Notes: generated from the sequence alone by a model not told the origin. A stretch of DNA of 64,000 nt from Candidatus Levyibacteriota bacterium (GCA_003152105.1 PLZJ01000002.1:6188-70187); one strand, 5' to 3'. Counted from the stretch's first letter, positions 5,030 to 61,903 are shown. A program made the numbers and translations.

Positions 5030-6241
5030 ATGAAGATTCAAAAACAATTATTATACCCAATCTTGATTGGAATATTTCTAATAATAGGTACAACTATAGT
5101 AATATTCTATGCTAAAGGGTATAGATTCGGGTTAGATAAAGGACAGCCATCATTTGGAATAACTGGACAACTAGTTTTAAAGAGTGAGCCTGATAGCGCA
5201 CAAGTATTTATTAACGGACATTTAACTACGGCTACAAATAATACGCTTGATTTAACTCCAGGAACCTACGATATTAAAATTGTAAAGGACGGTTATTTCC
5301 CTTGGGAAAAAAACTTAAAAATAGATAAGGAAGTTGTAACTTCTGTAGATGCTCGCTTATTTCCAAATTCTCCTACATCACTTGATGCAATTACACAATT
5401 AGGGGCTTTAGATCCCATACTTGACCCAAGTCAAACAAAAATTGCTTATATAGTTGCTTCTCAATCAGCAAAACTAAATGGCATATACGTATTAGATATA
5501 AGTAGCAGACCACTACTTACATTAGTAAGCGGATCAAATCAATTAGTTGATGACACAATCACTCCTTTTTCACAAGCAAAGATTCAATGGTCTCCTGATG
5601 GGAAAAATATATTAGCTACCCTATCAAATCAAAATTCAGGCTCAACCTCGTACCTTTTAGACGCATCAACAAGCAACCAAACACCACAAGATGTAACTGA
5701 GACACTAGGAACATTGGAAAGTCAGTGGGCAACGTTTTCACAAGTCCAAGACACTGCATTATTTAATGGGTTACGTAGTCCGTTAAGAAGTTTTGTATTG
5801 AAAAATTTACACGTTCTTGAATGGTCATCTGATGAGACAAAAATTTTATATCAAGCATCTTCATCTGCTAACTTCCCGTTCATTCGCGAACCAAGACTAA
5901 TTGGACTTAACTCTACGCCAGAATCTAGACAATTACAAAAGAGTTCCTATTATGTCTATGACATTAAAAACGATCAAAATTTTCTTATACCATTAGATAC
6001 TCCTAACTCTGAAGAATTATATTTAAAATGGTTCCCTGATTCAGATCATTTGATCTATGTTCACAACAAAAAGGTGGATGTAATGGAATATGATGGAACC
6101 AATTTGACAACGATATATGCTGGCCCATTCATCAACCATTATGTCTTTACTGCAGTTGATGACACCTCAAAAATCATTATTTCAACTGATTTTGGAAATT
6201 CTAATACTCCGCCAAATTTATATTCAATTAGTCTTCAATAA
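5030..6241 (+). CDS. Membrane-anchored PEGA-domain protein with PD40/TolB-like beta-propeller repeats
   Basis: N-terminal TM, then a PEGA-like segment (SAQVFINGHLTT...GTYDIKIVKDGYFPWEK). Repeats WSPDGK, WSSDETKILY and WFPDSDHLIYV resemble PD40 blades. Confidence 0.5.
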   Translation: MKIQKQLLYPILIGIFLIIGTTIVIFYAKGYRFGLDKGQPSFGITGQLVLKSEPDSAQVFINGHLTTATNNTLDLTPGTYDIKIVKDGYFPWEKNLKIDKEVVTSVDARLFPNSPTSLDAITQLGALDPILDPSQTKIAYIVASQSAKLNGIYVLDISSRPLLTLVSGSNQLVDDTITPFSQAKIQWSPDGKNILATLSNQNSGSTSYLLDASTSNQTPQDVTETLGTLESQWATFSQVQDTALFNGLRSPLRSFVLKNLHVLEWSSDETKILYQASSSANFPFIREPRLIGLNSTPESRQLQKSSYYVYDIKNDQNFLIPLDTPNSEELYLKWFPDSDHLIYVHNKKVDVMEYDGTNLTTIYAGPFINHYVFTAVDDTSKIIISTDFGNSNTPPNLYSISLQ

Positions 6242-6966
6242 GCTAAAGAGGTTAATCGTTTTGGTTTTGCTATTACCAAAAGTCTTTCAAGAGTAGTTCC
6301 AGGTGGCCAGCAAGTTTGCAGTATAAGTTGTTCGCTCCCTACATGAGGATCATTTACGTGTAATGTTTTTTGGGCATTTGTAATATAACTCGTATCATCT
6401 GGATTAACAATTTTAGAATCATCAACTATGTAATCATAACGTATTCCTTGGTAGTACACTACAATATCGTCTCCTTTTGATAAGTCTTTAAGTAAGTAGA
6501 ATACTGCATTATATCTACCTACGTCCCAAAAATTATCGGTTGAATGCGCAAATAAATAAATTGTGCCATTCATACCTGGAAAAACAGTACCTTTTGCATG
6601 AGCTACTCCTTGTTGTAAGATTGGTAAAAATATCGATGGATTAGTAGGATCTACATTTGGAAATATTTTTGCATTTGCTCCTATTTTGGGGATTACTATT
6701 CCAAAACTCGTATCTTTAGGTACAAGTAACTGAACATCGGAATTAGTAGTTAAATCTGTTCGCTGACTTACTGTAGGTATTGTACTTGTAGATGATGGTG
6801 TCTCAGCTATTACATAGTGTATTCCTCTAGCTTGATCTATTCTAAATTGAGCTTCATAATAAAGAGCTGGACCAAATGTTGCTCCCACCCCAAATAGCGC
6901 AAACAAAAGAAGAAAATTTCCAATAGTTCTTAGTACAATATATTTTATGACCTCATTTCTGTTCAC
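6235..6966 (-). CDS. Sortase-family transpeptidase
   Basis: N-terminal TM. Conserved His (LFAHSTD), catalytic 'LILQTC' (the TLxTC sortase signature) and a downstream Arg (LERLL). Confidence 0.75.
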   Translation of the reverse strand: MNRNEVIKYIVLRTIGNFLLLFALFGVGATFGPALYYEAQFRIDQARGIHYVIAETPSSTSTIPTVSQRTDLTTNSDVQLLVPKDTSFGIVIPKIGANAKIFPNVDPTNPSIFLPILQQGVAHAKGTVFPGMNGTIYLFAHSTDNFWDVGRYNAVFYLLKDLSKGDDIVVYYQGIRYDYIVDDSKIVNPDDTSYITNAQKTLHVNDPHVGSEQLILQTCWPPGTTLERLLVIAKPKRLTSLAY

Positions 6967-7186: not shown

Positions 7187-7834
7187 ATGAAACAACTAGG
7201 CCTTTGGACTGGAATAATTATTATAATAATTATAGTAATAGTAGGTTTAATTAAGCTTTCTAATTCAGCGAATTTCACATCATCAACGGGAAACTCATCT
7301 ATCCCTCCTCTCACTTCACAAGATCAAGAATTTGGAAATCCTAAAGCTAAAGTACAGTTAGTTGAATATGCAGATTTTCAATGTCCAGCATGTCTTGCTG
7401 AGTATCCAGAACTAAAGAAATTTATGAACGATTATAAAGACAAAGTACTAGTAGTGTATCGCTATTTTCCTTTGACTCAAGTACATCAAAATGCAATGGT
7501 GGCTGCACAAGCAGCATATGCAGCATCAAAGCAAGGTAAATTTTGGCAAATGCATGATAAGCTATTTGATACGCAATCTGATTGGGCTGACAGTACTAAT
7601 GCTCCAAGTATATTTGATACTTATGCGAAATCTTTAGGATTAAATATTAATGAATTTAAGAAAGATCAAAATGATACAAATGGTATAAACCTAATTAATC
7701 AAGAAGAAAATGCAGGGGTAAATGCAGGGGTAAATGCGACACCAACTTTGTTCTTAAATGGTAAGATGATAAATTCGAATCATCCTTTAAGTTATGACGA
7801 ATTAAAAAGCGTAGTAAATCCTCTTTTAAATTAG
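7187..7834 (+). CDS. Membrane-anchored thioredoxin-fold thiol:disulfide oxidoreductase (DsbA/BdbD-like)
   Basis: Poly-Ile TM anchor. 'YADFQCPACLAEYPE' CxxC active site in DsbA-like context. Confidence 0.7.
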   Translation: MKQLGLWTGIIIIIIIVIVGLIKLSNSANFTSSTGNSSIPPLTSQDQEFGNPKAKVQLVEYADFQCPACLAEYPELKKFMNDYKDKVLVVYRYFPLTQVHQNAMVAAQAAYAASKQGKFWQMHDKLFDTQSDWADSTNAPSIFDTYAKSLGLNINEFKKDQNDTNGINLINQEENAGVNAGVNATPTLFLNGKMINSNHPLSYDELKSVVNPLLN

Positions 7835-15455: not shown

Positions 15456-16094
15456 ATGACGTTTATAAAACAAAGTGTGTACTTATTTCTACCTTTTCTA
15501 GCAGCCTATTTATGGCAAATAAGCCCAGCATCTAACTATACCTTGGAAGTAATAGCACTATTGATAGCCATATATCTTATTATTTCAGCCAGGAAGCGCT
15601 TCAAAAATGGAACTATTTTTTTTGGCGGAACCATAGACGTTCTTATTTTTACACTTATAATACTTTTAATTGTTCTTGCCACAGGAAATTATTCATCAGG
15701 TGTGTTTTTTTTATTATATTTTATTTGTTTTGGTATTTCTTTTGTATTTGAACCTATTCAAGTATTTGTGTTTGTTATATACACCGCAGCACTCTTTACA
15801 GCACTCCAGTATACGCAAACAGACTATATTACTAGTAATTTTCTTAAGCTTGGCTCTCTATTCCTAATTGCACCTCTATCTTTCTTTTTTGGACGTGAAT
15901 TAAAGCAAGAAGAAAAAGAAATATCCGAACTTGAGGCAATGGACGAGAGAAATCAGGATAGTGCGAATGTTATATCTAAAAATATTTCGGAAGTTATTGA
16001 AAATGAGAAAAGCACTATTAAATCAAAAGATGTAGAAAAACTCAATGAAGTCTTGGAAGAAAGCGAAACACTTCGTGAAAAACCAGATTTATAA
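15456..16094 (+). CDS. Hypothetical polytopic membrane protein with an acidic coiled C-terminus. The ORF-track start at 15273 overlaps the leuS 5' end, so the internal Met at 15456 is more plausible.
   Basis: Several hydrophobic segments. C-terminal E/K-rich tail. No recognisable family. Confidence 0.3.
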   Translation: MTFIKQSVYLFLPFLAAYLWQISPASNYTLEVIALLIAIYLIISARKRFKNGTIFFGGTIDVLIFTLIILLIVLATGNYSSGVFFLLYFICFGISFVFEPIQVFVFVIYTAALFTALQYTQTDYITSNFLKLGSLFLIAPLSFFFGRELKQEEKEISELEAMDERNQDSANVISKNISEVIENEKSTIKSKDVEKLNEVLEESETLREKPDL

Positions 16095-16857
16095 TACTAA
16101 ATGTATGCTCAGAGCTGCGATTTTATTTTCCCTCATTTTATTATTTTTTTTGTCTAGTGTATTTGAATCTGTGAATGCTTTAACTATGTCAGATAGTAAT
16201 TATGTCTTAGAACTTGGAACATTAAACAGCGGTGCGGGGATATCAACGAGTAGCAATAATAAACTAAATATTTCACTAGGACAACTTGGACCGGGATTTT
16301 CAACAAGCTCAAACTTTCAACTAAAGGCAGGTTTTCAGTATATATATTCGATTATTCCTTTCACTTTTTCTATAGATAATACACTTATTGATTTTGGGAT
16401 TGTTTCTCCTACTTTTCCAGTTACACGATCTAATAATTTAACTGTTGGAAATGGATCAGCTAACGGCTACCAGGTAACGGCTTACGAAGACCATCAACTT
16501 CTATATGCCCCATCTGGGGCATTTATCCCAAATACCACTTGTGATGCTGCAAGCTGCAATACAATTACAGCTGGGAGCTGGACAAGTTCGACAACCTATG
16601 GATTTGGCTATAACTGTATTAACTCAGAAACCCCCACAAGATGTGGAAGTGGATTTGCAACTAGCTCAACCATTTTTAAGTCTTTTGCGGATAATTCATT
16701 AAGCCAAACTCCTCAAATCGTTATGCAGGCTACCACATCTAATACTGCTACATCGAGCGCATCTGTACAAATCACCTATAAATTGAATATTTCTGGGACT
16801 CAAACTGCCGGAGTTTATAAGAATAATATCTATTATGTTGCTACACCATTATATTAA
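16045..16857 (+). CDS. Secreted surface protein with a WxL-like C-terminal region (Tyr-for-Trp variant). An alternative start at 16105 gives a clean signal peptide.
   Basis: Signal peptide. N-terminal triple 'S.NY.L' repeat. C-terminus '...TAGVYKNNIYYVATPLY' resembles the WxL-domain end (AG.Y.G.L.W.L..P). Paralog of the 17947, 58564 and 59734 proteins. Confidence 0.45.
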   Translation: MKSWKKAKHFVKNQIYNTKCMLRAAILFSLILLFFLSSVFESVNALTMSDSNYVLELGTLNSGAGISTSSNNKLNISLGQLGPGFSTSSNFQLKAGFQYIYSIIPFTFSIDNTLIDFGIVSPTFPVTRSNNLTVGNGSANGYQVTAYEDHQLLYAPSGAFIPNTTCDAASCNTITAGSWTSSTTYGFGYNCINSETPTRCGSGFATSSTIFKSFADNSLSQTPQIVMQATTSNTATSSASVQITYKLNISGTQTAGVYKNNIYYVATPLY

Positions 16858-16858
16858 T

Positions 16859-17875
16859 ATGAAACATATATTTAAGCCTATATTTACAAGCAAAAATATA
16901 CTTATCAATTGCTCATTTTTACTGCTAATTTTGACTTTTTTTTATTTTCCAAGCCTTACACAAGCAGCCTCTTTAGGTCTTGGTATATATCCTCCAGTAA
17001 TCTCTATTCAAGCTAAACCTCCAGTTCATATCTCTACCCCACTTACCATAATAAATGAAACTAACAATTCTATTACTGCTCAAATTAGCTATAAATTATT
17101 CACAGCGGGATCAAATCAAAACGGTGAATTAACGTTTTTACCCGAAAAAAATCTCCCTTATCCAGATCAATTATTATTTAAAAAAGTAAAAATTTATGAA
17201 AATAATAATGCAATTAATACAATAACCCTTGATCCTAACCAGCAAAAAAAATTAAATTTAGATATTACACTACCTAAAAACGAAGCTTTAGGAGATTACT
17301 ACTTTAGTATTATTTTTGCTTCGACAAGTACGGCAACTATAGACAAAACCTCGCTTGGCGCAATAGGTGGAATTGGAACAAATGTACTATTATCAATTGG
17401 ACCAAAAGGAAAAGCACAAGGAAGAATACAGCAATTCTCCACACCTCAATTTATTAATTCAGGACCCGTACCCTTTATTTTACTTGTCAATAATACGGGC
17501 AGTCATATTATCAATCCTCAAGGCTTTATTACTATTACAAATATGTTTAATCAAACAATAGGTAAGGTTACATTATTACCGGTAAATATCCTGGAGCATT
17601 CAGTAAGAGCAATACCAGATAGTACAAATTCACAAGAAGTCCCAGTAGCAAATCCATTCTTACCAGATATACCTATTGCAGTTTGGCCAGAACATTTTTT
17701 ACTTGGTCCGTATACAGCTACGGTGCAACTTTCATTATCGGAAAATGGACCTATCATCAAAAATACGACTCATTTTTTCGCGTTCCCAATAATTTTCCTT
17801 ATTTTTATATTTTTTGTAATAATAATTTCTGTAATTATTTTTCTGCGTGTGAAAAGTCATATAAATCGAGGCTAG
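16859..17875 (+). CDS. DUF916/DUF3324-like (WxL-interacting-protein-like) cell-surface protein with a C-terminal TM anchor
   Basis: Signal peptide, beta-rich body, 'HFFAFP' then TM then basic tail (RVKSHINRG). The ORF-track start at 16835 overlaps the upstream gene; ATG 16859 follows its stop directly. Confidence 0.45.
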   Translation: MKHIFKPIFTSKNILINCSFLLLILTFFYFPSLTQAASLGLGIYPPVISIQAKPPVHISTPLTIINETNNSITAQISYKLFTAGSNQNGELTFLPEKNLPYPDQLLFKKVKIYENNNAINTITLDPNQQKKLNLDITLPKNEALGDYYFSIIFASTSTATIDKTSLGAIGGIGTNVLLSIGPKGKAQGRIQQFSTPQFINSGPVPFILLVNNTGSHIINPQGFITITNMFNQTIGKVTLLPVNILEHSVRAIPDSTNSQEVPVANPFLPDIPIAVWPEHFLLGPYTATVQLSLSENGPIIKNTTHFFAFPIIFLIFIFFVIIISVIIFLRVKSHINRG

Positions 17876-17946
17876 CATCTTATTTTTTGCGCTATTGACA
17901 AGCTTGCATCCTTTATGAAATTATATAATAGATTATATTAAACTTA

Positions 17947-19416
17947 ATGAAAAAACTGCCGATAAGTATTAGTATTTATTTTCTTGTGTATTTGGTGCTT
18001 ACTTCATTTAGTGGTCTTCTAACAATAAATCAGGCACACGCTTCTGCCGGTAACGCACTATCCCAAGCAAGTGATACCATCTCAACTTCTCGACCTTCTG
18101 CATCTTCTCCTATTAATGACGCAGGTAACGGAACGCTTTCTTCAGCAACCAGTACTGTTATATACAACAATGGTTCTCGTTTCTTAGCATCTGACTCAGC
18201 AAAACTTGCAGTTAATAAATCAACATGGGGATTTTCTCAAACAGGACTCTCTATTGCCTCGCAATCTGCAGATCTTAAAACAGTATATTTTTCAGGACAA
18301 GCAGGATCTCTTCTTCCAAATGGCTATGGTACGTTAATAAACGCAGTAACTGCCTCCCACGTCATATCATTTAAAACAGTCAGTACGATTCCCCTACAAG
18401 GAAAAGTTGTTATCACCTTCCCATCTCTTTCAGCAAATGATACACAAAATGCAGCATCACCTTCTGCAACAACATTTCAGTTCAATGGACTAGCAAGTTC
18501 TGGAGTAACGATTAATAGTGGCAGCGGTATGATTTGGGGGCTATGCACCATTGCAGCACCTGTTATTACCTGTCCTCTTGTTAACGGATCAACAGTTCCG
18601 GGAAATTCAACTATTACCGTTACCATTGGTACTGCATCAGCAACACTTATCAATCCAACCAAATCAGCTGTTGCGGGAACTGCAGATAAATGGAAGATCG
18701 GACTCCAAACACAAGATAGTAGCAATAATACCCTTGATGGTCCTACAAACGTCGTAGTTGGAACAGTTGAAGCAGTAAGTGTTAATGCAACCATCGACTC
18801 TACCATGACGTTTACTATCTCCTCTGCAACTTCTTCAGCATGCGGTGATCCTTTAACAGCAGGACTTGTTACTCCTTCTTCAACGAGCGTAGATCTTGGT
18901 ATTATTACTTCTTCTGTTACTAATCAGGCACAACTGTTAACAGTTACCACAAATGCGGCAAATGGGTATTCAATTACAGCAACATCTTCTGGTCATTTAA
19001 TTAATGCGGCAAATGGTAGCTACTTCCCAGATGCTAACCAAGGAAATAGTGCTAATGGAAATTCACTCAGTAGTAATACAGCACCTGCACCGCTTCCTAT
19101 CTATGCAGGACAATCAGCATTTGGCATACATCCTTGTACTGCATTCCCTGTAGGAAGTGGTAATGCGTCAGTAAACACTATATTTAGTAGTAGTTCTACT
19201 AATCAAGGACAGGGCGGAGGACTCAATAATTATTATGCAAATCCATGGAATAACAATGGGAATTCATTTGCTATGCAATTATCAAGTTATGGCTCACAGC
19301 CAACAGGAACAGGCGCACAACAAACATGGGTAGAATATGGAGCTACCGCTGCCCCATCTCTTCCAGCAGGTGTTTATAGCAATTACTATACATATGTTGC
19401 AACACCAACCTTTTAG
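17947..19416 (+). CDS. Secreted surface protein, WxL-like C-terminus (paralog of the 16045 protein)
   Basis: Signal peptide. Ser/Thr-rich. C-terminus '...PAGVYSNYYTYVATPTF' parallels the 16045 protein end. Confidence 0.45.
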   Translation: MKKLPISISIYFLVYLVLTSFSGLLTINQAHASAGNALSQASDTISTSRPSASSPINDAGNGTLSSATSTVIYNNGSRFLASDSAKLAVNKSTWGFSQTGLSIASQSADLKTVYFSGQAGSLLPNGYGTLINAVTASHVISFKTVSTIPLQGKVVITFPSLSANDTQNAASPSATTFQFNGLASSGVTINSGSGMIWGLCTIAAPVITCPLVNGSTVPGNSTITVTIGTASATLINPTKSAVAGTADKWKIGLQTQDSSNNTLDGPTNVVVGTVEAVSVNATIDSTMTFTISSATSSACGDPLTAGLVTPSSTSVDLGIITSSVTNQAQLLTVTTNAANGYSITATSSGHLINAANGSYFPDANQGNSANGNSLSSNTAPAPLPIYAGQSAFGIHPCTAFPVGSGNASVNTIFSSSSTNQGQGGGLNNYYANPWNNNGNSFAMQLSSYGSQPTGTGAQQTWVEYGATAAPSLPAGVYSNYYTYVATPTF

Positions 19417-19431
19417 TGTATATAATAAATT

Positions 19432-20451
19432 ATGAAGCATATTATACTTAAGAATTACAAAAAGAAAAAATACGCATATCCAGCAACTCTAGCTGTAGTA
19501 AGTCTGTCATTATTAACAATGGTCGGGATTAAATATGCACATGCACAACAGGCAATTACGTTTACGATCAGTCCACCAGTTATTAATGCGACCCTAAACC
19601 CAGGCGATAAAAGTGAAGGTGTTATGAAAATAATAAATGACACTAACCAAACGCAAAATTATACTGTTTCCGTACAAGACTTTATTGTTGATAATTCTCA
19701 GGGTATACCACATATACTACCACCTGACACATTACCTCAAAAATACTCTGCTGCTTCATGGATTGGCGTAGATAATCCAAGTCTATCAGTACCTGCTCAT
19801 ACTCGTGTAACATTTAACTATTTTATCCAAACACCGGCAAATGCACGCCCGGGAGGTCACTACGCAGCTGCATTAATAGGTCCTGATACATCTAGCACGC
19901 TTAGCAACTCAGGAACAGGAGTTTCAGGTAAAATAGGCACACTTTTTTATATTGATATAAATGGAAATATTGTAGAACACGCAGACGTAGCTGCGTTCCA
20001 AGCAAACGGCTTTCAAGAATATGGACCAGTAACCATAAATACTCTTATTAGAAACCAAGGTGATCTTCATATTACTCCGCTGGGTACTATAACTCTTAAA
20101 GATATGTTAGGCAGAGTTGTTGCAACGGAAAAACTGGATCAACATAATATTTTTCCTGGAGGGATAGCAAGAGCTTATCAAAATGTTTTTGGACAAAATC
20201 AATTTATGATTGGTCCTTATACTGCAAAATTAGCAGCAACCTATGGAAGAAATAATAATTTACCTTTAGTAGCAACATTAACATTCTGGGTATTTCCTTG
20301 GAAAGTAGTAACACTTGTCATATTAATACTCATCGCCTTGATACTTGCTGTAAAAGTATTAAGAAGCAGAAAAGGAAAACCACCAGTTGAACACCATGAA
20401 GAGGAAGATAAAAAAGTAACAGAAACTCCAGTCGAAACACCTAAAGCATAG
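19432..20451 (+). CDS. DUF916/DUF3324-like cell-surface protein, C-terminal TM anchor plus charged tail
   Basis: 'ITFTISPPVINATLNPGDKSEGVMKIIN' matches the DUF916 N-terminal pattern. 'TFWVFPWK' then TM then RSRKGK. Confidence 0.5.
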   Translation: MKHIILKNYKKKKYAYPATLAVVSLSLLTMVGIKYAHAQQAITFTISPPVINATLNPGDKSEGVMKIINDTNQTQNYTVSVQDFIVDNSQGIPHILPPDTLPQKYSAASWIGVDNPSLSVPAHTRVTFNYFIQTPANARPGGHYAAALIGPDTSSTLSNSGTGVSGKIGTLFYIDINGNIVEHADVAAFQANGFQEYGPVTINTLIRNQGDLHITPLGTITLKDMLGRVVATEKLDQHNIFPGGIARAYQNVFGQNQFMIGPYTAKLAATYGRNNNLPLVATLTFWVFPWKVVTLVILILIALILAVKVLRSRKGKPPVEHHEEEDKKVTETPVETPKA

Positions 20452-20526: not shown

Positions 20527-21423
20527 TTAATATCCTACAAACCAGAAGTGATGAAGCCGTTTATCTTTTTTCTTGATAAACGTAAACGCAAACGGACTAA
20601 GAAGCTTTGCAAGTAGGCTTGGATAGGCACTTCTTAACAAGAATGATATTATTATCAATAAAGGCACTCCTGCCCATAAAGTTCCAATTGGGGAGCTTAC
20701 AAATGGTTGCATAACATCATTTAGCACTTGATAAAAAGATGCGGTTGCCGTATTTGTGATCGTTTGAGGTAAACTAAGAACATTAAAAGATAAGAATTTT
20801 AAAGGTTTTATTGAGTTAACGCTATTTAAAGTTGCAGTAACATAAGCTTGATAACTTCCAGCAATTAAATCATTAAATGTATAAGAATAATAACCTGTCT
20901 TATTAGCATTGGTTGAATACGTTTTATTATTGCTTAGATGAATCAAAATCGATGCGTAAGGCATTGAATATCCTTGTATAACCTCTTGTTGGCCCGTATT
21001 AATCTGGGCGCTTTTTAGAGCCATTGTAGGAGGCAGGAAGAGGTTATTTATAGTTATGTTACCAATTATCGGAGTTACGGAAATACAGGAATAAGACTCA
21101 CCTATTCTTTCATAGTCATGTGCATCGAAACATACCTGGGTAACTCCACTTTGTACTTGAACAGCAGTAAAAGAAAAATTACCATACTGATCAGCAACTA
21201 CGTTTCTAAGTGGATAGTTATTAATTAACAAATCAATGCTTGCAAAAGGAGAAATATAACCAGACAAATTAATATACAAAAGCTGGTTGCCCACTTGTGC
21301 GCTTACTGAAGATGTTCCAGATTGCGTTAACCCATCTGTTTGAGCGAAAACAGAACTACCTAAATTAAATGAATAAAAATAAAGAAAAACAAAACAATAA
21401 ATAATTAAATTTTTTATTTTCAC
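20527..21423 (-). CDS. Hypothetical secreted protein with a C-terminal hydrophobic segment
   Basis: Signal peptide, Ser/Thr/Asn-rich body, C-terminal TM-like stretch plus KKKDKR. Confidence 0.35.
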   Translation of the reverse strand: MKIKNLIIYCFVFLYFYSFNLGSSVFAQTDGLTQSGTSSVSAQVGNQLLYINLSGYISPFASIDLLINNYPLRNVVADQYGNFSFTAVQVQSGVTQVCFDAHDYERIGESYSCISVTPIIGNITINNLFLPPTMALKSAQINTGQQEVIQGYSMPYASILIHLSNNKTYSTNANKTGYYSYTFNDLIAGSYQAYVTATLNSVNSIKPLKFLSFNVLSLPQTITNTATASFYQVLNDVMQPFVSSPIGTLWAGVPLLIIISFLLRSAYPSLLAKLLSPFAFTFIKKKDKRLHHFWFVGY

Positions 21424-22276: not shown

Positions 22277-25200
22277 ATGGAATTTATTAAGTCATTTATT
22301 GATTTCTTAATTGAGCATAAAAGCTCAAAAGCAACGGTGAAAAATTACCGAGCTGACATAAGCCAGTTCGTTAAGTGGTATGAGGCTACTTATAAAACTA
22401 CTTTTTCACCTAATGATGTAACGAATCAAATAATTGCATCCTATAAAACAGTTAGATTATCGTCCGATAGTAATAATACCCTTTCTCAAAAAACAATTGA
22501 ACGTCACCTATCTTCTCTTAGAAAATTCTTTTCCTATCTACTTTCAGAAAACATAACAACCTCAAACCCATTTGCTGCAAGTGAAGAAAAGCAGATTGAA
22601 AAAGATATTTGGCACATTCAGGCTTTCAAGAACTTCCTTTATGTAAACAATTCTTCTAACTTAACTATAAAAAACTATATCATAGATGTGCGACAGTTTC
22701 TAAAATGGGTCGAGGAAGTAGTGCAAGCTCAAGAAGCATGGATAGTTACGGATCAGAATATTTTTACATATATCAATAAAAATCTAATTGAAGAATATCG
22801 ATCTAGATTAATCGAAAGCTCGGGATTCTCCCCAACTTCCGTAAATCGAAAATTATCTTCTCTTAGAAAGTACATATCATGGGCAGTAGACAATGGAATT
22901 GTAGCTAACATAGAAGAAGATCCGATATCTAACAATTTAGTTAAAGATGATGTTTTAAAAAATATATCAGAAAATATCAATGATAATAAATATATAACAA
23001 ATAAGCACTTCGATGAAGTTATTGCTAACCAAACCAGTGCCTATTCCAGTATTCCACCTATTCGTTTAATTCAAAGAGCTTTTAAATTATTAGATTTAGC
23101 TTTTGTCTTTTTTCTAATAATTCCTACCGCTAAAGCTTTTAAGCTCAGCAAATATAATTTTTGGAAATTCAAAGGCAAGGAAGTTTTTACTTCTCAGACA
23201 CCAATTAGTCCTAAATTAGACTCAATAAACAAGCTAAATCGAATTCAAAATAATGTTAGCAATCGACTCCTCAATTTGCGAAAGCAAAATCCTAATATTA
23301 AAAAGATATTTTATGCTCCTCTTTCTGTCTCGACAAAATACATGCCTTTTCATAAAAAGTTATTGTTTCATCTTCGATATACAAGACCAAAATGGTACAA
23401 AAAGTATCACTCTTATTCAATTACTCATTATTTCCATTTTGCAATCTTAATTATATTTGCAAGTACTGTGGCATTTATTACTTACCAGCACTTTTTTCAA
23501 TCCAAGGGCAATCAAGCAGAAGCAGTTGCTCAAACAACGATTCCACGAATTTTATCTTTCCAAGGAATCTTAACTGATGCAAACGGAAATCCTATTGCAA
23601 CTACAAAACAAATTAGATTTGAGTTATATAACGATCCAAGCGCAACTGGATCTGGAAAAGAGTTGTGGGAAGAAGTCAGAACGGTTACACCAGATCAAAA
23701 CGGTATTTTTGCTGTCAATCTTGGTATTAATGGGGTATCAACTGGTAATTGTGCTTCATTCCCTCCTCCAGGACCTGCAACAGGAGCTTGTACGATTCCA
23801 GTTAGCGTATTTACGCAGAATTCAAATGTATACTTAGGTGTTACTATTGGATCTGATATAGAACTTACTCCTAGACAACAAATTGCTGCTGTTGGATTTG
23901 CAGCAAATTCTGAATCTCTGCAAGGATTGATTCCAACAACTGATACGGGTAGCATCAGCTCACTCAGTCTTGGAAACTACTACGAAGTACTAGCAACCGA
24001 TGGTAATGGAAACGTAACGCTTGGTGGAAGCACATTAACAACCATCCAAGAAACTGGAGGTGGACTTCGATTAATAGGAAATCCTTTAATCCTTACGACT
24101 GCTAATGGTGGCAATTTACAATTATCTACTGACACGAAAGGGTTAATTGATGTTCAAAAACCTCTTACCAATACGACAACAAATGGTAATGCCAGAATAA
24201 ATGGAACCGGGAACGTAACTGACACAGGAGCCGTTGAGGTAGATGGTTTATTTGCAACTTTAGCAACTTCATCAGGTCAATCAGCAGTAACAATCGATCA
24301 ACAAAGCACTGGACCAGTTCTTAGTGCCTCTGTTAGTGGACAAGCAGTATTTACAATTGATAATTCAGGTAATCTAACAAACAGTGGAAATATTACTACA
24401 TCGGGATCAGGAGCAGGATTAACTTTTAGTGGAGGCTCAACTCATAATATATCGGCTTCAGGTGGCACTCTTCAGCTTGGAGCGATTACCTTAAACGGCG
24501 CAATAGCTGGCGGAGGGCAAAACATAACCGGACTGGGGACTATAAACGGACTTGGCATAACTGCAAATACTGGAGTAATAACAACTGGAACTTGGAATGC
24601 AAATCCAATAAGTACACAATACGGAGGAACTGGACAGAACTGGTCATCTGCAGCGCAAGGATCAATTCCCTATTTTTCAAGTACAGGTGGAATGGGACTT
24701 ATTGGTGTAGGAAGCTCAGCACAATGTCTTATTGGAGGAACTACCCCAACTTGGTCTTCATGTTCTTCAGCAAGTAGTAATTATTGGCAATTAGATGCCA
24801 CGGGTAAAGTACTTTCACAAATAAATAGTTATGATTTAACTGTTGGAAGTTCACCAGCAACAGGTTCCTCAACGTCTTCTGCTGCATTCCAGGTTTTTGC
24901 ACTATCAAAAGGTAACACACCAGCAGGAACCATATCATCTGCTGGCAATCTACAAGTAGCTGGAATTGCTTCTTCTTCAGCACTTGCTGTTGGATACGGT
25001 ATAAATCAAGTAACGGCAAATAACCTCGTAGTTTCAGGAAATGTTGGGATTGGAACAAATACACCTGCAGCACTACTTGATATTGAAGGAACAACTGGAG
25101 CACCAAATGCTAACCAAGTTTTAAAAATAATAGGTGGAACAGGTGTTGGAGGAGGCTCAGGATTAGCTGGAGGTACTGGCGCCATTGCTTCTATATCTGC

Positions 25201-28200
25201 TGGCAATGGTGGAGCTGGAGGAAGTAATGCATCGGGAAATGGAGGATTCGGAGGAAATGGTGGAGGTCAACTAATTTTGGCAGGTAGTGGTGGCACAGGT
25301 GGAAATAGTACTCTTGCAAATCAATCAGGTGGATTTGGAGGACAAGGCGGAACTTTGGGTTTTGTAACTGGAAATGGAGGAAATGGTGGAAGTGATACTG
25401 CAGGATCAGGTGCTGCAACAAGTAATGGTGGAAATGGTGGAAATGGTGGGGATTTTAATCTTATTTTAGGCACTGGTGGACAAGGAGGAAGTTCGCATGG
25501 ATCTTCAAGTACGATCGGCCTTGGAGGAAATGGAGGATCTGTCTATCTACAAGCTGGAACTGGTGGAACTGCTGGCGCAGCAGGTAATGGCATAAATAAT
25601 GATGGACTTGGCGGAAATATAACAATTGCAGGTGGAACTGGAGGTTCTAGCACTCTTGGTACATTTGGTAATGGAGGAAAAGTGTATATTTATGGTGGCC
25701 TAGCAGGATCTGGAAGTGTTGGAAACGTTGTACTTGCTCAAACATCAGCAGGTGTAAATCAAGGTAATGTGGGAATTGGACAAGCAAATCCTACTTCTAT
25801 ACTCGACATTGGAACAGTAAATCCAACTATCCAAGCAGATAGTTCAAATACTAATTTAGCTTTATCAACAAATGGAACCGGTAGCCTATTTATTGATACA
25901 ACTGCTGCAGGAAATATTAAGATAGCGAGTAATGCTGCTCTACTTTCTTTGGGTAATTCTACTCACCTAACTACACTTCTTGGAAATAACATATATAATC
26001 CAAACATTACCGGAGCAGGAAATACAGGAGGAGTTTTCTATGATGCAAACAATCAAGGTTCACTTGCGGTTACTGCTGCTGGTTCTAATGGAAACTGTTT
26101 GTTATCTGGTGGAGCAGGTGCGCCAACATGGGGCAGTTGTGGATCAGCTGGCGGTAGTTATTGGCAACTAAATTCCAATGTAGTTTCTCCAGTTCAGAAT
26201 TATTTTGATCTATCTGTTGGCGGAACTGCAACTGCATCTGCTCCATTTCAAGTATTTGCAAGTAGAAATCCTTTAACCTTTACCCCAGCTGGGACAATAT
26301 CAACACTTGGAAACATACAGGTTGCAGGAGTTGCATCTTCATCTGCTTTAGCAGTTGGATATGGGCAAAACCAAGTTCAATCAGGTAGTGGAAATGCAGT
26401 GTTTTCTGGAAACGTAGGCGTAGGAACAAACACTACATCTAATGCACAACTTACAGATCAACTTTCATCATATACCCTCTTAAATAGTTTACAAGTTTAT
26501 TACAAATTTGATGAAAATAGTGGAACTATCGCCAATGATGCAACTGGCAATGGTAATACAGCTACATTAAATGGGGCAAATATTTGGACTTCAAGCGGGA
26601 AGATTAATTCAGGCTTACAACTAGATGGTTCAACAAATTATGTTAGCACCAACTATGTAGGTCCGCTTGGAAGTAATGCAAGAAGCGTAAATATATGGTT
26701 TAAGGGCTGGACAACTACTGAAAGAACTATATGGAATTACGGAGGCGCTGGAACTGCTGGAGCTTTAGATTTTGAAGAAGGGATTGGTGGAAATGGAAAT
26801 AGTATTGGATTTCGAACTGGTGGTGGAGCATATGGATATTGGACTACTAGTCTTACAAATGATGGACTATGGCATATGCTTACAGTTACTTATGCTGCTG
26901 GTGGATTAGAAAATACTATTAAACTTTATCTAGATGGCGTACAACAAAATAGTCTTACTGATAATTTTGGTGGAAATACCGTTAATACTACCTCAGGAGT
27001 ACTCACAATGGGTGATATTACTGGTACTGGAATATCCGGACTTGATGAATTTGCAGTTTGGGGAAGATCGCTTACATCTGCTGAAGTTACTCAACTTTAT
27101 AATAGCGGTTCAGGAAAACAATATTCCTTTACATCATTATTACAATTATTAAGTAATTCAGGTTCTGTCTTATCTTCTTTTAATGGCGCTGGTTCTTTAG
27201 GAATTGGAACTATCGCACAAAATGCACTTGATGTTTTTGGATCTGCGGCATTTGGTTCTTATGCTGGAAATCAATATGCACCAACCAATGGTCTTATTAT
27301 TTCTGGAAATGTGGGAATAGGAACAAGTAGTCCATCAGGGCAACTTCAAGTTTTTGGATCAAGTAATAATCCGACTGCTTCAATTTCTGCTAATTCTGCG
27401 TATACTGGCCTACTTGTAGATAATTCAGGCGGGACAAGTGCTCAAGGATCAATTTTTACTGCTTCAACTTCAGGCATAACTAAATTTACCGTTAACAATA
27501 ATGGACTTATTTTAGTCGGTACAAATTCAACTACTAATCCAGGAACCTTATCAGTATATGGAACCATACAAAGCAATGGCATTGCTAACGGTGGGACAGA
27601 TTTTCTCGCACTTGGCTTACCTTCTACTCCTACTGGACTACCACAGTATTTAGGTAATTGGCAAAGCACTCAGGCATGGGCTCTTGGGCCAATAAGTAAT
27701 TCTTCGACAGATAAAACCGTATATTTAGGAATAGCTTCTAATACTACAGGCACTTGGAATGGTGCAAGCTATGCAAACTTAAGTGTTGGTGGCAATGTAG
27801 CTGTTGGCTATCATTATCCCTCCTTTACTGGTATTGCATCACTTATCGTAAATCAACAAACCGGAGGTGCAGATCTAATTACTGCATCAGCTTCAGGTAC
27901 AACTAAATTTAATGTTGATAATAATGGAGATATAACAATAGCTGCAGGTTCATATATAGATACAAATGCTGGGGGCACTCTCTCTATAGGTACAAATAAT
28001 GCTACAACCCTTAATCTTGCAACAAATACCAATGTCACTGCCCTTTCAATTGGAAATGGCTCATCAGTTGATAAAATCTTTGGTTCAGGAATAACAACAA
28101 ATCAAAATAGCGTTCTTTACCTTGGTGCTGCTAATCAGCTTGGAGCCGCAACAACTGGTTCTTCAAATCTCTGCCTTGTTTCGGGAGCGAATACGCCAAC

Positions 28201-31200
28201 TTGGACAGCTTGTTCTGGGGTATCTTCAAACTATTGGATACAAACAAATGGAATTGGTGTAGCAAATGGTGGCTATACCGCTCTTGGAAATACCACAACT
28301 GATCTATTGATTGGTGGGACTTCAACTGCTTCTGCTGAATTTGCAGTACTAAACGTAGCGCCAGGTCTTACGCCAGTTGCTTCTGTTTCTGCAGGATCAT
28401 CTGGAACTGGAACCACAGAAAATTCAGGTATTTCACTATCTGCTAATGGAACTATACAAACTGTAGGAAGAACAACACTTACCGTTGGAGGCAATACAAC
28501 AGGAGATATATTTTTCAATCCTGGCGGTGTCGGACTTGGAAATTCTCTTTCCATAGATGTTGGTGGAAATGTAGGAATTGGTATGAATAATGGAAACGTT
28601 CCGAATGCACCCTTACAGATAAGGACTGCAATTCCTGATGTCAGCAATGGAACTGACATAAATATCACTGGAACCATGAGTTCTTTAACTAATGGTCAAT
28701 ATGGAGCAAGAATCACACCCCAACTTGGCATAAGCTCTAATCCTGCTAGTAATTTGTTTGAGTATGGGGCCGAAAACTCTCCTTCATTTAATATGGCAAA
28801 TACAGGAGTTACTTTTTCTAAAGTATTTTTAGTAGGCTCTGATGCTAATAATTTTCTTTCTGGAAATGGCATTCTTGGAACTTCAATCGGTTTTCAAACC
28901 GAAACAACACTAAATAATGATACAACTCGTGTTACTAATGCAATTGGATTAAATGTAGAAGGAATAGTAAAAAATTGTTTAACTTGTGTAGTTGGTAATA
29001 GTACGGGCATTGATATATTTGATCAAAGTGGTCTTGCCACAAATACAGCCAATCTTGTTATTAATACTAGTGGTACAGTACCAACTGGAAATTACAGTAT
29101 ATATAATGCAAGTTCACTACAAAACTATTTTGCAGGCAATCTTGGTCTAGGCACAGTTAGTCCAACTGCACAACTTCAAGTTGTTGGCACTAACTCTCCT
29201 ACTGCTTCTATTTCAGCAAATTCTGCGTTTACTGGTCTTGTCGTAGATAACAAAGGTGGAACAGCAAATCTAGGCGATATATTTACAGCATCTGCCTCAG
29301 GACTAGCTCGTTTCACGATTGCAAATAATGGAAATCTAACGTTAAATGGATCAACATATACAACAAACAACAATAGTGTTCTTTACACCAATGGGTCAGG
29401 AAATCTTCTTGCTGCAACAACAGGTTCTTCCAACCTCTGTCTTGTGTCTGGAGTATCTGCACCAACATGGACAGCTTGTTCAGGAGTTTCAAGCAACTAC
29501 TGGATACAAACAAATGGTATTGGGGTTGCTGGAGGAGGTTATACCGCTCTTGGAAATACCACAACAGATTTACTCATAGGTGGAACCTCCACTGCATCAG
29601 CTAAATTTGCAGTCTTAAACGTTGCACCAGGAGGAACTCCTGTTGCTTCTGTTTCAGCAGGAACATCTAGCTCAGGGACAACTGAAAACTCAGGTATTGC
29701 CCTTTCTGCAAATGGATCCATTCAGTCTGTTGGAAAAACAACACTTACTATTGGGGGAAATACCACCGGAGATATATCGCTTAATCCTGGAAATAATGGT
29801 GCAGGCACGCTCTATCTTGCGAGTACTGGTAATATAGGCATAGGAACTACAGCTCCTACGGCTCAACTTCAAGTTGGAGGAGGATTAAGTTCTCCAGGTA
29901 ATATCACAGTATCTTCTATTTCTGCAAATACTAATCAGGCTGGTTTAATAGTTGATAATGGCGGTGGATTAAATAATGCAGGAGCGATCTTTACTGCTTC
30001 TGCAGCTGGTATGTCGCGTTTTACTATTGCAAACTCTGGCAATCTAACGCTTAATGCATCAACTTATACCGCCAATAATATTAATGTTTTATATTCCAAC
30101 TCCTCTGGTAATGTTCTTGCAGCTTCAACTTCAACCGGAAATCTTTGTCTTACATCAAATAGTGGAGGTACTGCGGCTGCATGGGGCAATTGTTCTTCAG
30201 CTTCTAGTAACTACTGGCAGCTAAGCGGCAATGTTCTTTCCCCAGGACTTTTATCTGATGATTTAGTTATTGGAGGAAGCTCAACTTCTTCTGCGGCATT
30301 TCAGGTGTTTTCAGGTAAAAAAACATATGGAGCCATAACAGAACCAGCTGGAACTGCGTCTTCCTCTGGAGACTTATCTTTTGGAGCAGCAAATGGAACA
30401 ACGCAAAATTTAAATATATTAAATGGTAACTCATTTCAAATCAGAACTTCACCAGGTGGACCAGAAGGATTACTCGCTACTCCTGCACTGTATGTTAAAA
30501 ATAATGGCAACGTTGGCATTGGCACAGTAGCTCCAGCTTCAAAACTTGAGGTAAATGGTGACATTTCTTCAAAAAATACTTCTGTACAAGGATATGTATA
30601 TGCATACGATACTTCAGGATCACATTATGTGAGAATGTATAACGACGGTACAAACGGATACGTATCGCTTAGCGATGGAGCGACATTAGGGATTTCTTCA
30701 AATACATATGTCTTTACGCAAACACAACAATATTTTAGAGCTCAAGGAAACACCTTTACAAATTATGTTGGCTTACAAGATACAGATGCAACTGGAGGAA
30801 AACTTACAACTTCATTTGCAAATTTAAATATTAATACTGATATGACAACAGTGGTTAATACTACCGGAACAAATGTATCAGATATATTTGCTGCTTCAAG
30901 TTCTGCAACTACAAGATTTGTGATTAACTCAAATGGAAATGTTGGGATTGGCACTTCTCAACCAGGAGCACAGCTACAGATTGTAGGCACCAATGCGCCG
31001 ACGGCTTCCATTTCAGCAAACTCCGCCTATGCTGGGCTGGTTATTGATAATAAAGGAGGAACAAACAATGGCGGCGACTTGTTTACTGCGTCTTCTGCAG
31101 GACAAACTCGATTCAGAATTGCAAATACTGGTGCTGCCTTATTTCAGGGAGATACTTTAACTTCAATTGGTAATGGTGCTCAATATAATGGAAGTAATGC

Positions 31201-40559: not shown

Positions 40560-41279
40560 ATGAAAAAATTAATCAGCATATTACCAATCATACTAGTACT
40601 TCTCAGCTCGTTTGCGGGTCAAACTTTTGCCGATGATTATGGAGTATCTAACTATGGTAGTAATTGTAATAGTTCCTATGGTGGCAGCAATTATTCTGGT
40701 TCCTCATGTTCTGTTAGTACCATTAGCATAAACAAGCTTGTACAAAATCCAAAATCAAAACAATATGTGGAAAATCTCGCATTAACTGATCCTAATTATG
40801 CTCCAAATCAAATAGTGCCTTTTCAAATTAATATAACAAACACTGGCAATACTTCTCTTACAAATGTAAAAGTAGTAGATAGTTTCCCACAATACACAAC
40901 CTTTGCCGGTGGACAAGGCAGCTATAATCAAAGTCAAAATACTGATACCATTACCGTTGGTAGCCTAAATCCTAATCAAAGTGAATCTATTATGGTAGAT
41001 GGAAAAGTCGGAGATACTAACACTTTACCACAAAATCAGTCACAATTTTGTTTAGTTAATGAAGCAAGCGTAACGGCGGATAATATACCATCAAGCACAG
41101 CTAATTCTCAATTCTGTGTGACTCAGCAAATTTCCGGAGTTACAACTAAAGGAGGGCTTGAAGTAGCCTCACCAACAACTATATCAAAAACTCCTGGGAC
41201 TGGACCTGAAGCATTACCTTTACTTGCTCTTTTACCAACTGGATTATTAGGTGCTTTGCTTCGAAGAAAAACTAAATAA
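40560..41279 (+). CDS. Secreted DUF11/CARDB-like repeat-domain protein with the same C-terminal sorting-like signal (TGPEALPLL + hydrophobic + RRK)
   Basis: Signal peptide. 'FQINITNTGNTSLTNVKVVDSFP' is typical of the DUF11 conserved-repeat domain. C-terminus '...TPGTGPEALPLLALLPTGLLGALLRRKTK'. Confidence 0.55.
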   Translation: MKKLISILPIILVLLSSFAGQTFADDYGVSNYGSNCNSSYGGSNYSGSSCSVSTISINKLVQNPKSKQYVENLALTDPNYAPNQIVPFQINITNTGNTSLTNVKVVDSFPQYTTFAGGQGSYNQSQNTDTITVGSLNPNQSESIMVDGKVGDTNTLPQNQSQFCLVNEASVTADNIPSSTANSQFCVTQQISGVTTKGGLEVASPTTISKTPGTGPEALPLLALLPTGLLGALLRRKTK

Positions 41280-58141: not shown

Positions 58142-58567
58142 ATGCAAAGCATCAGCAAAAAAGTTTATATAACTCCAAGTGTATTTTTTGCATTTATTGA
58201 TAGAGCGCATCCAAAATATCAAACAGCAGGTGCTTTTTTTCGTTATTTTGCTCTAGAACAATATGCTTTATATTCTGACGCAATTTCTATAAGCAATACC
58301 TATTCCGAGCTATATGACAAAATATCACCTTCACTTGCTAAAGATTTTCTAAGATCGATTTACATTGGATCATTTAATATTCTACATCCTGAAGAAAGTG
58401 ATATGAAAGCTGCACTCAAAACGCTGGTAAATTACCGTACAACTGATCTTACTTATCCAGAATCAGTAATTGCTGTTTTAGCAAATAGAAACCGTATTCC
58501 TCAAATATGCTCGTTTGAATATCTACATCCTCTATTTGGTTTATCTTTATTTTATTTACCAATATGA
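58142..58567 (+). CDS. Hypothetical 141-aa protein immediately downstream of the HTH gene (possible degenerate PIN-like partner)
   Basis: 2-nt gap after the HTH gene. N-terminal 'KVYITPSVFFAFIDRAHP' loosely resembles a PIN beta1-alpha1 segment but lacks the first catalytic Asp. Confidence 0.3.
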   Translation: MQSISKKVYITPSVFFAFIDRAHPKYQTAGAFFRYFALEQYALYSDAISISNTYSELYDKISPSLAKDFLRSIYIGSFNILHPEESDMKAALKTLVNYRTTDLTYPESVIAVLANRNRIPQICSFEYLHPLFGLSLFYLPI

Positions 58568-59649
58568 AATATATTTTTATATTTATATTCCTTCTAATGA
58601 TTCTGGCATCACCAGTGCTTGCAACGAGTTATACACCATCTAGCACCCACTATCAGATTCGAGAATATGGATTCGGTGCAGGAGGAACTGCAACTTCATC
58701 ATCGCAAAGATATAATCTATTTGGCACTGCAGGTGAAGTTGAATACGGATCTCAAAGCTCAACGCTTTATGTGCTTAATTCTGGCTTATCATACGTAAAT
58801 CAAGCAAATGTACCTCCTGCACCTACGGTTTCTAATCCTTCAAATTTCTACAATCAATTACAAGTTACGATAAACACAACAGGCAATAGTCCAACTGATA
58901 CTCAATATGCAATCGCAGTATCTACTGACAATTTTGCGACATCAAAATATGTACAGATAGATCATACTATAAATAATACTATCGCATGGCAAACTAATGC
59001 ATCATGGATTGGAGGCAACAGCTATGTAACATTAATTGGTCTTACTCCAAGTACGACTTATTATGTTAGAGTTGCAGCAAAACAAGGAAGCTTTTCGCAA
59101 ACTCAATTTGGACCAATAGCAAACGCAGCAACTACAAGTCCTTCGATTTCGTATTCTATGGGGGTTGGATCTTCTTACCCAGGTGTAAACCCACCTTATG
59201 CAGTAAGCATAGGCACAATTAATGCTGGGGGTATTACAACCGCTACAAATAATGTTTATGTAAATTTAAGTACAAACGCAAATGCAGGGGGTACAATATA
59301 TATCTACGATGCAAATGGCGGTTTACTGAGCCCTACTGCGGGAGGATATGTTCTACCGTCAATAAGCGCTGATCTTTCGTCAGGATCAGTTTCAGAAGGA
59401 TACGGAGCGATTTACAACACCACATCTCAAACCTCAGGAGGTCCAATGGAAGCTCTTTCACCATTTAACGGATCAGGAAGTGTTGTTGGAAACCTACAAA
59501 CTACGGTTCAAAGTATGTTTGACTCAACAAGCTCACCGGTTACTGGAGGACAAGTATCATTTACGCTTAAAGCAAAAGCAAAAAATACAACTCCAGCTGC
59601 AAATGATTATTCGGACACCTTAACAGTGCTAGTCGCTGGTTCATTTTAG
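58564..59649 (+). CDS. Secreted surface protein with an FN3-like domain and a WxL-like/aromatic C-terminus (paralog of the cluster-A proteins)
   Basis: Signal peptide. N-terminal 'S..Y.(I/L)' triple repeat homologous to the 16045 protein. FN3-like 'LIGLTPSTTYYVRVAAKQ'. C-terminus 'TPAANDYSDTLTVLVAGSF'. Confidence 0.45.
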   Translation: MKYIFIFIFLLMILASPVLATSYTPSSTHYQIREYGFGAGGTATSSSQRYNLFGTAGEVEYGSQSSTLYVLNSGLSYVNQANVPPAPTVSNPSNFYNQLQVTINTTGNSPTDTQYAIAVSTDNFATSKYVQIDHTINNTIAWQTNASWIGGNSYVTLIGLTPSTTYYVRVAAKQGSFSQTQFGPIANAATTSPSISYSMGVGSSYPGVNPPYAVSIGTINAGGITTATNNVYVNLSTNANAGGTIYIYDANGGLLSPTAGGYVLPSISADLSSGSVSEGYGAIYNTTSQTSGGPMEALSPFNGSGSVVGNLQTTVQSMFDSTSSPVTGGQVSFTLKAKAKNTTPAANDYSDTLTVLVAGSF

Positions 59650-59733
59650 TTTTATCTTAATTATGAATTATTATTTTGAATTCCATTACTTGACAAACAC
59701 AACCATAATCAACAATACTATTAATACTAGGTT

Positions 59734-60852: not shown

Positions 60853-60863
60853 CATGCTGTGTT

Positions 60864-61892: not shown

Positions 61893-61903
61893 ACTTACCC
61901 ACA

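Follow-up and report, generated by a model that had tools for sequence, protein, structure and literature searches.

The Pam pilus system was defined from two solved filaments of a parasite of the candidate phyla radiation (CPR), Candidatus Mycosynbacter amalyticus (Troman et al., bioRxiv 10.64898/2026.03.03.709456), and here we compare with it a four-gene locus, termed locus A, in a 64,000-nucleotide stretch of DNA from a Candidatus Levyibacteriota bacterium (GCA_003152105.1 PLZJ01000002.1:6188-70187; this whole stretch is referred to as the window). In the Pam system, the pilins PamA, PamB and PamE consist of an N-terminal nine-strand sandwich, a linker donor strand and a truncated immunoglobulin (Ig)-like C-terminal domain; PamT serves as the tip pilin and has a single domain, the chaperones PamC and PamD resemble PapD/FimC and carry a C-terminal transmembrane (TM) helix, and the terminator PamR is an RbmA-like TM protein (Troman et al.). 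The system is usher-less, and the M. amalyticus envelope has no outer membrane; disulfides were reported for PamA and PamB, and the pilins form filaments on their own (Troman et al.). The same authors found a tail-fibre-like gene to be a constant neighbor of pam operons, reported an ATP-synthase neighborhood, and detected homologues in Saccharimonadia and, via language-model search only, in Microgenomatia.

Also close to locus A are the WxL/Csc clusters of Firmicutes, defined by at least one WxL-interacting protein (WxLIP) and at least two WxL proteins (Hassan & Williamson 2022/2023). In a published AlphaFold prediction the beta-sandwich of WxL is completed by a strand from WxLIP; PDB entries for these systems are 9i1y and 9i25, the latter a WxL-WxLIP complex. 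The WxL/WxLIP mechanism therefore looks like donor-strand complementation. The Pam preprint makes no mention of WxL, DUF916 or Firmicutes (Troman et al.). Because the secreted proteins of locus A match Pam models, one of them resembles pilins in its predicted structure, and the parts of the locus fit the Pam list, we consider locus A to be very likely a pilus operon of the Pam type from an ultrasmall CPR bacterium resembling Levybacteria (class Microgenomatia), and the pilus would be built by an usher-less, chaperone-assisted donor-strand-exchange pathway.

RESULTS

Locus A alternates secreted and membrane-anchored proteins

As the initial annotation of the window had it, four co-directional genes alternate between secreted and anchored products. 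The open reading frames (ORFs) lie on the + strand at 16045-16857 (ORF1, 270 aa), 16835-17875 (ORF2, 346 aa), 17947-19416 (ORF3, 489 aa) and 19432-20451 (ORF4, 339 aa) and are close-set, with intergenic gaps of 1, 71 and 15 nucleotides (nt). The lengths originally given for the anchored proteins, 346 and 339 aa, hold for the latter, and the public gene call shortens ORF2 to 338 aa with a start at 16859. Alignment with homologues places the true start of ORF1 probably at Met21 (16105), so that the overlap with the upstream gene at 15456-16094 is gone. The features of the locus, with residue numbers for the 338-aa form of ORF2, are as follows.

16045 to 16857 (likely start 16105), + strand: ORF1, secreted PamT-like single-domain protein and candidate tip/initiator pilin (NCBIfam PamT match)
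16348 to 16857, + strand: ORF1 C-terminal pilin domain, aa ~102-270, with four invariant cysteines
16859 to 17875, + strand: ORF2, membrane-anchored two-Ig-domain protein with signal peptide, WxLIP/DUF916 homologue and chaperone of the PamC/D type; domain 1 at aa ~40-155, loop at 156-170, domain 2 at aa ~188-308
Within ORF2, aa 175-182, + strand: conserved strand 'NVLLSIGP' after the domain-1 loop
17789 to 17869, + strand: ORF2 TM helix, aa 311-337 (AlphaFold model)
17947 to 19416, + strand: ORF3, secreted two-domain candidate major pilin (PamA/B-like), N-terminal region at aa ~33-270
18754 to 18825, + strand: ORF3 conserved linker and putative donor strand 'VEAVSVNATIDSTMTFTIS', aa ~270-293 (sequence conservation)
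18883 to 19416, + strand: ORF3 C-terminal pilin domain, aa 313-489 (homology to the ORF1 domain)
19432 to 20451, + strand: ORF4, second membrane-anchored chaperone and ORF2 paralogue (BLASTP, hhalign)
20305 to 20361, + strand: ORF4 TM helix, aa 292-310, followed by a basic and then an acidic cytoplasmic tail

By hydropathy analysis, each of the four proteins has a hydrophobic signal segment at its N terminus and is predicted to carry a Sec-type signal peptide, and only ORF2 and ORF4 have a C-terminal TM segment with a basic tail. This bears out the topology first described for the anchored proteins (signal peptide, one C-terminal TM segment and basic tail); in ORF2, the hydropathy segment at aa 311-329 falls within the helix of the AlphaFold model. 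All motif strings quoted at that time were found as well: the C termini of the secreted proteins read ...TAGVYKNNIYYVATPLY and ...PAGVYSNYYTYVATPTF, ORF4 carries 'ITFTISPPVINATLNPGDKSEG' and 'TFWVFPWK', and ORF2 carries 'HFFAFP'. Promoter- and terminator-like sites found by scanning locus A did not exceed shuffled expectation; the G+C content of the window is ~33%, and its sequence matches a metagenomic scaffold identically.

Database searches returned hundreds of homologues for each locus A protein, named as Levybacteria/Levyibacteriota or Patescibacteria. Synteny was analyzed in 80 species-representative (GTDB) genomes carrying an ORF1 homologue. The conserved order is a 212-aa membrane protein, ORF1, ORF2, a block made up of ORF3, ORF4 and a convergent 298-aa protein, and finally a giant protein. 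This order is complete in 22 loci, and the ORF3-ORF4-298-aa block is absent from at least 17, from which it follows that ORF1-ORF2 and ORF3-ORF4 act as separable pilin-chaperone pairs. Because ORF1 is homologous to ORF3 and ORF2 to ORF4 (see below), each protein has hundreds of homologues, and the order is conserved in 80 genomes, the pattern is not due to chance, and locus A represents a real, conserved system.

Approximately half of the 80 records with the Levybacteria-type module are titled 'uncultured Gammaproteobacteria bacterium' (third-party-annotation metagenome-assembled genomes), which we take to be a labelling artefact of those submissions. With these titles read as mislabelling, the module appears to be restricted to CPR bacteria. 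The records from the ORF1-family genome scan were mostly labelled Levybacteria/Levyibacteriota; M. amalyticus was not among them, and its pam operon itself was not sought.

The secreted proteins share a C-terminal domain related to Pam pilins

When the secreted proteins ORF1 and ORF3 were searched against Pfam, nothing was found at E ≤ 1. Against NCBIfam, ORF1 matched the PamT model (NF058579) end to end (residues 26-270 versus positions 6-241 of 241, E = 9e-9) and also matched Pam_pilin_C (NF058581, 'Pam pilus system pilin subunit') with an E value of 2e-4. The matches extend across the families: Pam_pilin_C was matched by all 44 of 44 ORF1 homologues (best E = 6e-10) and 41 of 44 ORF3 homologues (best E = 1.4e-11), and PamT by 43 of the 44 ORF1 homologues (best E = 3.5e-13). 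The C-terminal domains of the two secreted proteins are related to each other, evident by 28% identity between residues 113-270 of ORF1 and 313-489 of ORF3 (BLASTP, E = 6e-7) and by profile-profile alignment of the two families (97.8%, E = 1e-12).

The predicted model of ORF1 has a confident core at residues ~102-270, preceded by an N-terminal segment (aa 46-101) that is poorly predicted yet highly conserved. A Foldseek search of the PDB with this model gave weak matches (best E = 7e-3), most of the top ones to chaperone-usher pilins, with resemblance to the donor-strand-exchange pilins CsuA/B, FimG, FimH and PapA. Searches of PDB sequences with phmmer and hmmsearch, using ORF2, ORF3 and the ORF1, ORF2 and ORF3 family profiles, returned nothing relevant; the Pam cryo-electron microscopy chains are therefore either too distant or absent from the PDB set that was searched. 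Altogether, the results support homology of the C-terminal domain of ORF1 and ORF3 to the Pam pilins, and a likeness to pilins of the chaperone-usher type.

Within the ORF1 family, four cysteines are invariant and the C terminus follows the motif Q..AG.Y.N...Y.ATP.[FY]. The invariant positions of the ORF3 family comprise V279 and I291 of the linker, the C-terminal motif, and two cysteines, Cys299 and Cys397. These invariant, paired cysteines would parallel the disulfides of PamA and PamB. A DsbA/thioredoxin-like gene is located at 7187-7834 (+ strand), and its product may serve the invariant pilin disulfides.

The anchored proteins are two-Ig-domain homologues of WxLIP

The AlphaFold model of ORF2, with a predicted local distance difference test (pLDDT) score of 89.4, consists of two beta-sandwich domains followed by the TM helix at residues 311-337. 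ORF2 and ORF4 share 24% identity over 295 aa (BLASTP, E = 1e-13), and ORF4 aligned with the ORF2-family profile at 98.7% (hhalign); by an exhaustive HMMER search, the ORF4 family comprises 6209 representatives (50% identity) at E ≤ 1e-3. ORF2 scored 31.9 bits against Pfam WxLIP_PGBD/DUF916 (PF06030), above the gathering score of 27.3, and the same model was matched by 35 of 44 ORF2 homologues and by 44 of 69 ORF4-family representatives (best E = 8.5e-12), with ORF4 itself at E = 0.069.

For comparison with Firmicutes, we used six annotated WxL loci (Enterococcus, Listeria, Bacillus and Melissococcus) obtained by a tblastn search of plasmids with the published EfmWxLIP3 peptide. When full-length profiles were compared by hhalign, the ORF2 family aligned with the 'DUF916 and DUF3324' proteins of these loci over domain 1 (96%, E = 4.7e-9), and domain 1 alone gave 91.8%. 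The ORF4-family profile aligned with the six proteins over 283 columns (98.4%, E = 8.8e-15), which span the signal peptide, both domains and the TM helix. A DUF916+DUF3324 layout had been proposed for the anchored proteins in the initial annotation, with Pfam comparison as its check. Its DUF916 half is upheld by the Pfam score and by the alignment through both domains; as for the other half, Pfam DUF3324 was matched by neither ORF2 nor ORF4, and comparison of profiles restricted to domain 2 was not significant (E = 0.31), with only the more diverse ORF4-family profile aligning through that domain.

Altogether, these data show that ORF2 and ORF4 each have two Ig domains and a C-terminal TM segment that anchors them in the cytoplasmic membrane, and that they are homologous to WxLIP (DUF916-DUF3324-TM); as judged from the structural model, their fold is that of PapD-like pilus chaperones. 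Locus A thereby contains, as described for Pam, a pair of PapD/FimC-like paralogues that have a TM helix at the C terminus.

Comparison with known pili and a proposed assembly pathway

Locus A and the Pam system have in common a CPR host, Sec export, a PamT-like single-domain protein, a larger pilin with the shared Pam C-terminal domain, paired cysteines, two paralogous two-Ig chaperones with a C-terminal TM helix, the absence of an usher and a giant tail-fibre-like neighbor. They differ in that the host is a Levybacterium and not a member of the Saccharimonadia, pilin and chaperone genes alternate as pairs, a single large pilin is present, and the equivalent of PamR is only a guess; furthermore, an ATP-synthase neighborhood was not seen among the genes examined (the ORFs around locus A and a second locus, locus B, and the called genes of the scaffold). 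Compared to chaperone-usher pili, locus A has a membrane-anchored chaperone in place of a soluble periplasmic one, and sequence similarity is undetectable; in Pam pilins, moreover, the donor strand is an internal linker and not an N-terminal extension (Troman et al.). No usher was found as an ORF, Pfam match or NCBIfam match in or beside locus A, and, as is usual for CPR bacteria, the Levybacteria-type host would have no outer membrane.

Assigned in gene order, the four products would be a tip pilin, a chaperone, a major pilin and a second chaperone. In the pathway that we propose, each chaperone would capture its cognate pilin as it emerges from Sec, ORF2 with ORF1 and ORF4 with ORF3, a pairing suggested by the gene pairs and by their co-loss. 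A chaperone strand, probably the conserved one after the disordered loop that ends domain 1, would complete the incomplete Ig-like C-terminal domain of the pilin. ORF1, which has neither the ORF3-type N-terminal domain nor the linker strand, would start the fibre as its tip subunit; the linker strand of an incoming ORF3 would then displace the chaperone strand from the previous subunit, so that the fibre would grow at its membrane-proximal end with neither an usher nor ATP. Termination and anchoring of the fibre may fall to an Ig protein with a TM anchor, possibly the product of the convergent 298-aa gene; the most likely role of the fibre would be attachment to, or contact with, a host cell.

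Several points weigh against assigning locus A to the Pam type. Its sequences are very distant from those of Pam, with hidden Markov model (HMM) scores at 10-40% of the curated cut-offs: ORF1 reached 35 bits against the PamT equivalog cutoff of 240 and 21 bits against the Pam_pilin_C cutoff of 55, ORF3 itself gave no match to the NCBIfam Pam models at E ≤ 1, and no NCBIfam chaperone model (PamC/PamD-type) matched ORF2 or ORF4. Since these scores are far under the cut-offs, membership in the Pam family rests on the family-level and profile evidence given above. The likeness of ORF2 and ORF4 to the M. amalyticus PamC and PamD is drawn from the published description, the two-domain architecture and donor strand of ORF3 are deduced from sequence conservation, and the chaperone-pilin pairing, donor-strand exchange and order of subunits stand as proposals. 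The genomes, at least 17 in number, that have ORF1-ORF2 alone beside the giant protein are left unexplained by a simple tip-plus-rod model. Finally, we know of no filament seen in any Levybacterium.

The secreted proteins and the WxL domain

The initial annotation read the secreted proteins as WxL-like, with Tyr in place of Trp, and the locus as a WxL/Csc-type display complex. On this reading, the secreted proteins would bind peptidoglycan non-covalently, the WxLIP homologues would stabilize and tether them, and no filament would form. Much about the locus agrees with it: the anchored proteins are true WxLIP homologues, alike over their full length, in size (~320-365 aa) and in architecture; the layout of a small secreted, a large secreted and an anchored protein is that of the published cluster definition; completion of the partner sandwich by a WxLIP strand, as predicted for WxL, would follow the same principle as donor-strand complementation; and the C-terminal motifs of the secreted proteins and of WxL domains are similar by eye.

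The WxL domain itself was not detected. Pfam gave no WxL match for the secreted proteins, which contain no W-x-L motifs. When small WxL domains were compared by hhalign with the Pam-type C-terminal domains, E values of 0.19 (ORF1), 0.039 (ORF3) and 0.011 (merged profile) were obtained, and a reversed-sequence control gave 0.014. The match consists of a 33-column segment on the first WxL-motif strand, where 'GYQV' is aligned with 'GW.L'; it beats 40 column shuffles and is equalled by the reversed control. With large-WxL domains the score equalled that of the shuffled null, whereas the same method paired small with large WxL domains at an E value of 5.5e-15. In the reciprocal direction, Firmicutes WxL proteins had no match to the NCBIfam Pam models at E ≤ 10. 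In the fold searches, 9i25_A was not among the top structural matches. Because the hhalign scores lie at control level, the large-WxL scores at null and no reciprocal Pam match exists, the secreted proteins do not qualify as the two WxL proteins of a WxL/Csc cluster, though a very remote relationship would lie beyond the reach of these comparisons; they instead match Pam pilin models. The locus further differs from WxL/Csc clusters in having no small LPXTG protein and a host that is not a Firmicute, and WxL proteins have been described as peptidoglycan-bound, not as filament-forming. We therefore regard a WxL-type display complex as unlikely. The gene arrangement first noticed is confirmed and its interpretation partly supported, through WxLIP; the novelty claimed for such a system outside Firmicutes has been overtaken by the 2026 description of the CPR Pam pilus.

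A separate observation concerns the Firmicutes plasmid WxL loci themselves. The N-terminal ~70 residues of 10 of 13 WxL proteins matched EF0750_LPXTG (NCBIfam; best E = 4.7e-9), the family of a small LPXTG protein encoded in the same clusters; the region in common is made up of the signal peptide, a 'Y.SNG.V.F.P' strand and a linker rich in Pro.

Neighboring genes and a second operon

The genes next to locus A and other features of the window are listed below.

15456 to 16094, + strand: conserved upstream gene for a polytopic membrane protein of 212 aa whose C-terminal tail is acidic and coiled (public gene call)
20527 to 21423, - strand: convergent gene for a 298-aa protein that has a signal peptide and Ig-like domains and, at the C terminus, a TM segment (weak Ig-like Pfam matches, hydropathy)
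22277 to 33631, + strand: giant surface protein of 3784 aa whose N terminus carries two cytoplasmic domains of the Phage_int_SAM-like type (PF02899, E = 8e-19)
40560 to 41279, + strand: surface protein with DUF11 repeats and, at its C terminus, a sorting-type tail that is hydrophobic and basic
50927 to 57643, - strand: second giant surface protein, 2238 aa, with repeat blocks in common with the 3784-aa protein
58564 to 62866, + strand: locus B, a further operon of this type, with two pilin-like proteins and two chaperone paralogues
58564 to 59649 (361 aa, B1) and 59734 to 60852 (372 aa), + strand: locus B secreted pilin-like proteins, both ending in 'ANDYSDT..V..AG.F', unlike the locus A motif
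60864 to 61892 (342 aa, B3) and 61904 to 62866 (320 aa, B4), + strand: locus B anchored chaperone paralogues (profile matches, hydropathy topology)

A homologue of the 212-aa protein lies directly 5' of the ORF1 homologue in ~70 of the 80 loci. Hydropathy indicates at least three hydrophobic segments in this protein, and Pfam and NCBIfam give no family for it; it may be an unrecognised membrane partner or component of the system. In most loci the 298-aa protein and the ORF3-ORF4 pair are found together. At the N terminus of the mature 298-aa protein, the strand 'AQVGNQLLYINLSG' gave a weak alignment with 'GKIGTLFYIDING', the strand that follows the domain-1 loop of the chaperones (hhalign, E = 0.003, probability 10%), and we mention this protein, speculatively, as a candidate for a PamR-like terminator or anchor. 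In locus B, the N terminus of B1 matched positions 6-78 of the PamT model (E = 2e-9), and this protein has an FN3-like domain in addition. Compared with the ORF2 family, B3 gave 98.6% (E = 5.7e-16) and B4 90% (E = 1.5e-6); B3 also matched PF06030 weakly (E = 0.0018).

The 3784-aa protein is probably the 'tail fibre-like' neighbor reported for pam operons. Its cytoplasmic Phage_int_SAM-like N terminus is odd for a surface fibre, and a PHROGs search found no phage families. Most of the 80 loci have a homologue of it behind the module; in at least 17 of them this homologue stands directly after that of ORF2, with only ORF1-ORF2 before it. Together with the constant presence of a tail-fibre-like neighbor in the Pam preprint (Troman et al.), this arrangement would suit another explanation, in which the pilin- and chaperone-like proteins are accessory parts of the giant surface protein, namely a cap or adaptor and a folding or anchoring factor, and not a free-standing pilus. 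In locus B, however, two pilins and two chaperones occur with the nearest giant gene on the opposite strand, and the homologous M. amalyticus pilins form filaments alone (Troman et al.). No link in sequence connecting the pilin domain to the giant protein emerged, and none was sought. An accessory role of this kind is, in our judgment, very unlikely.

Lastly, a sortase-assembled Gram-positive-type pilus or a type IV pilus, which might be considered given a sortase gene 9 kb upstream of locus A (6235-6966, - strand; PF04203, E = 3e-20) and the fact that type IV pili are common in CPR bacteria, has almost no chance of being correct and appears effectively refuted by the protein sequences, as ORF1 ends in ...ATPLY and ORF3 in ...ATPTF, neither having an LPXTG motif, a hydrophobic stretch or a basic tail, the N termini are ordinary Sec signal peptides and not class III prepilin signals, and no type IV pilus ATPase or platform gene is present in the locus.

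DISCUSSION

With the assignment of locus A as a Pam-type pilus operon, a Levybacteria operon and its second copy are tied to the Pam family by ordinary profile methods. To our knowledge, Pam pili are the only structurally defined surface filament specific to CPR bacteria, with a presumed role in first contact with host cells.

The homology between Pam-type anchored chaperones and WxLIP, drawn here from profile comparisons, is absent from the Pam preprint. Because the anchored chaperones are homologous to Firmicutes WxLIP, the results suggest a relationship between Pam pili and WxL/Csc clusters as usher-less chaperone systems of bacteria without an outer membrane, and the WxLIP link gives an evolutionary context for the origin of the Pam pilus. 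A further step, which we put forward tentatively and which may well prove wrong, is that the WxL domain is a diverged pilin-type acceptor, and that Pam and WxL/Csc are two branches of one ancient usher-less pathway with membrane-anchored chaperones and donor-strand complementation. For a donor-strand-exchange chain that has a sortase-anchored terminator, all members of a WxL cluster would need an N-terminal strand in common. If this further step were correct, WxL proteins and the small LPXTG protein, through the 'Y.SNG.V.F.P' strand, would form wall-anchored, donor-strand-linked chains or short fibres and would not merely be stuck to peptidoglycan. Through the WxLIP link, the poorly understood WxL systems of enterococci, listeriae and lactobacilli gain a testable mechanism, chaperone-type strand complementation and possibly strand exchange.

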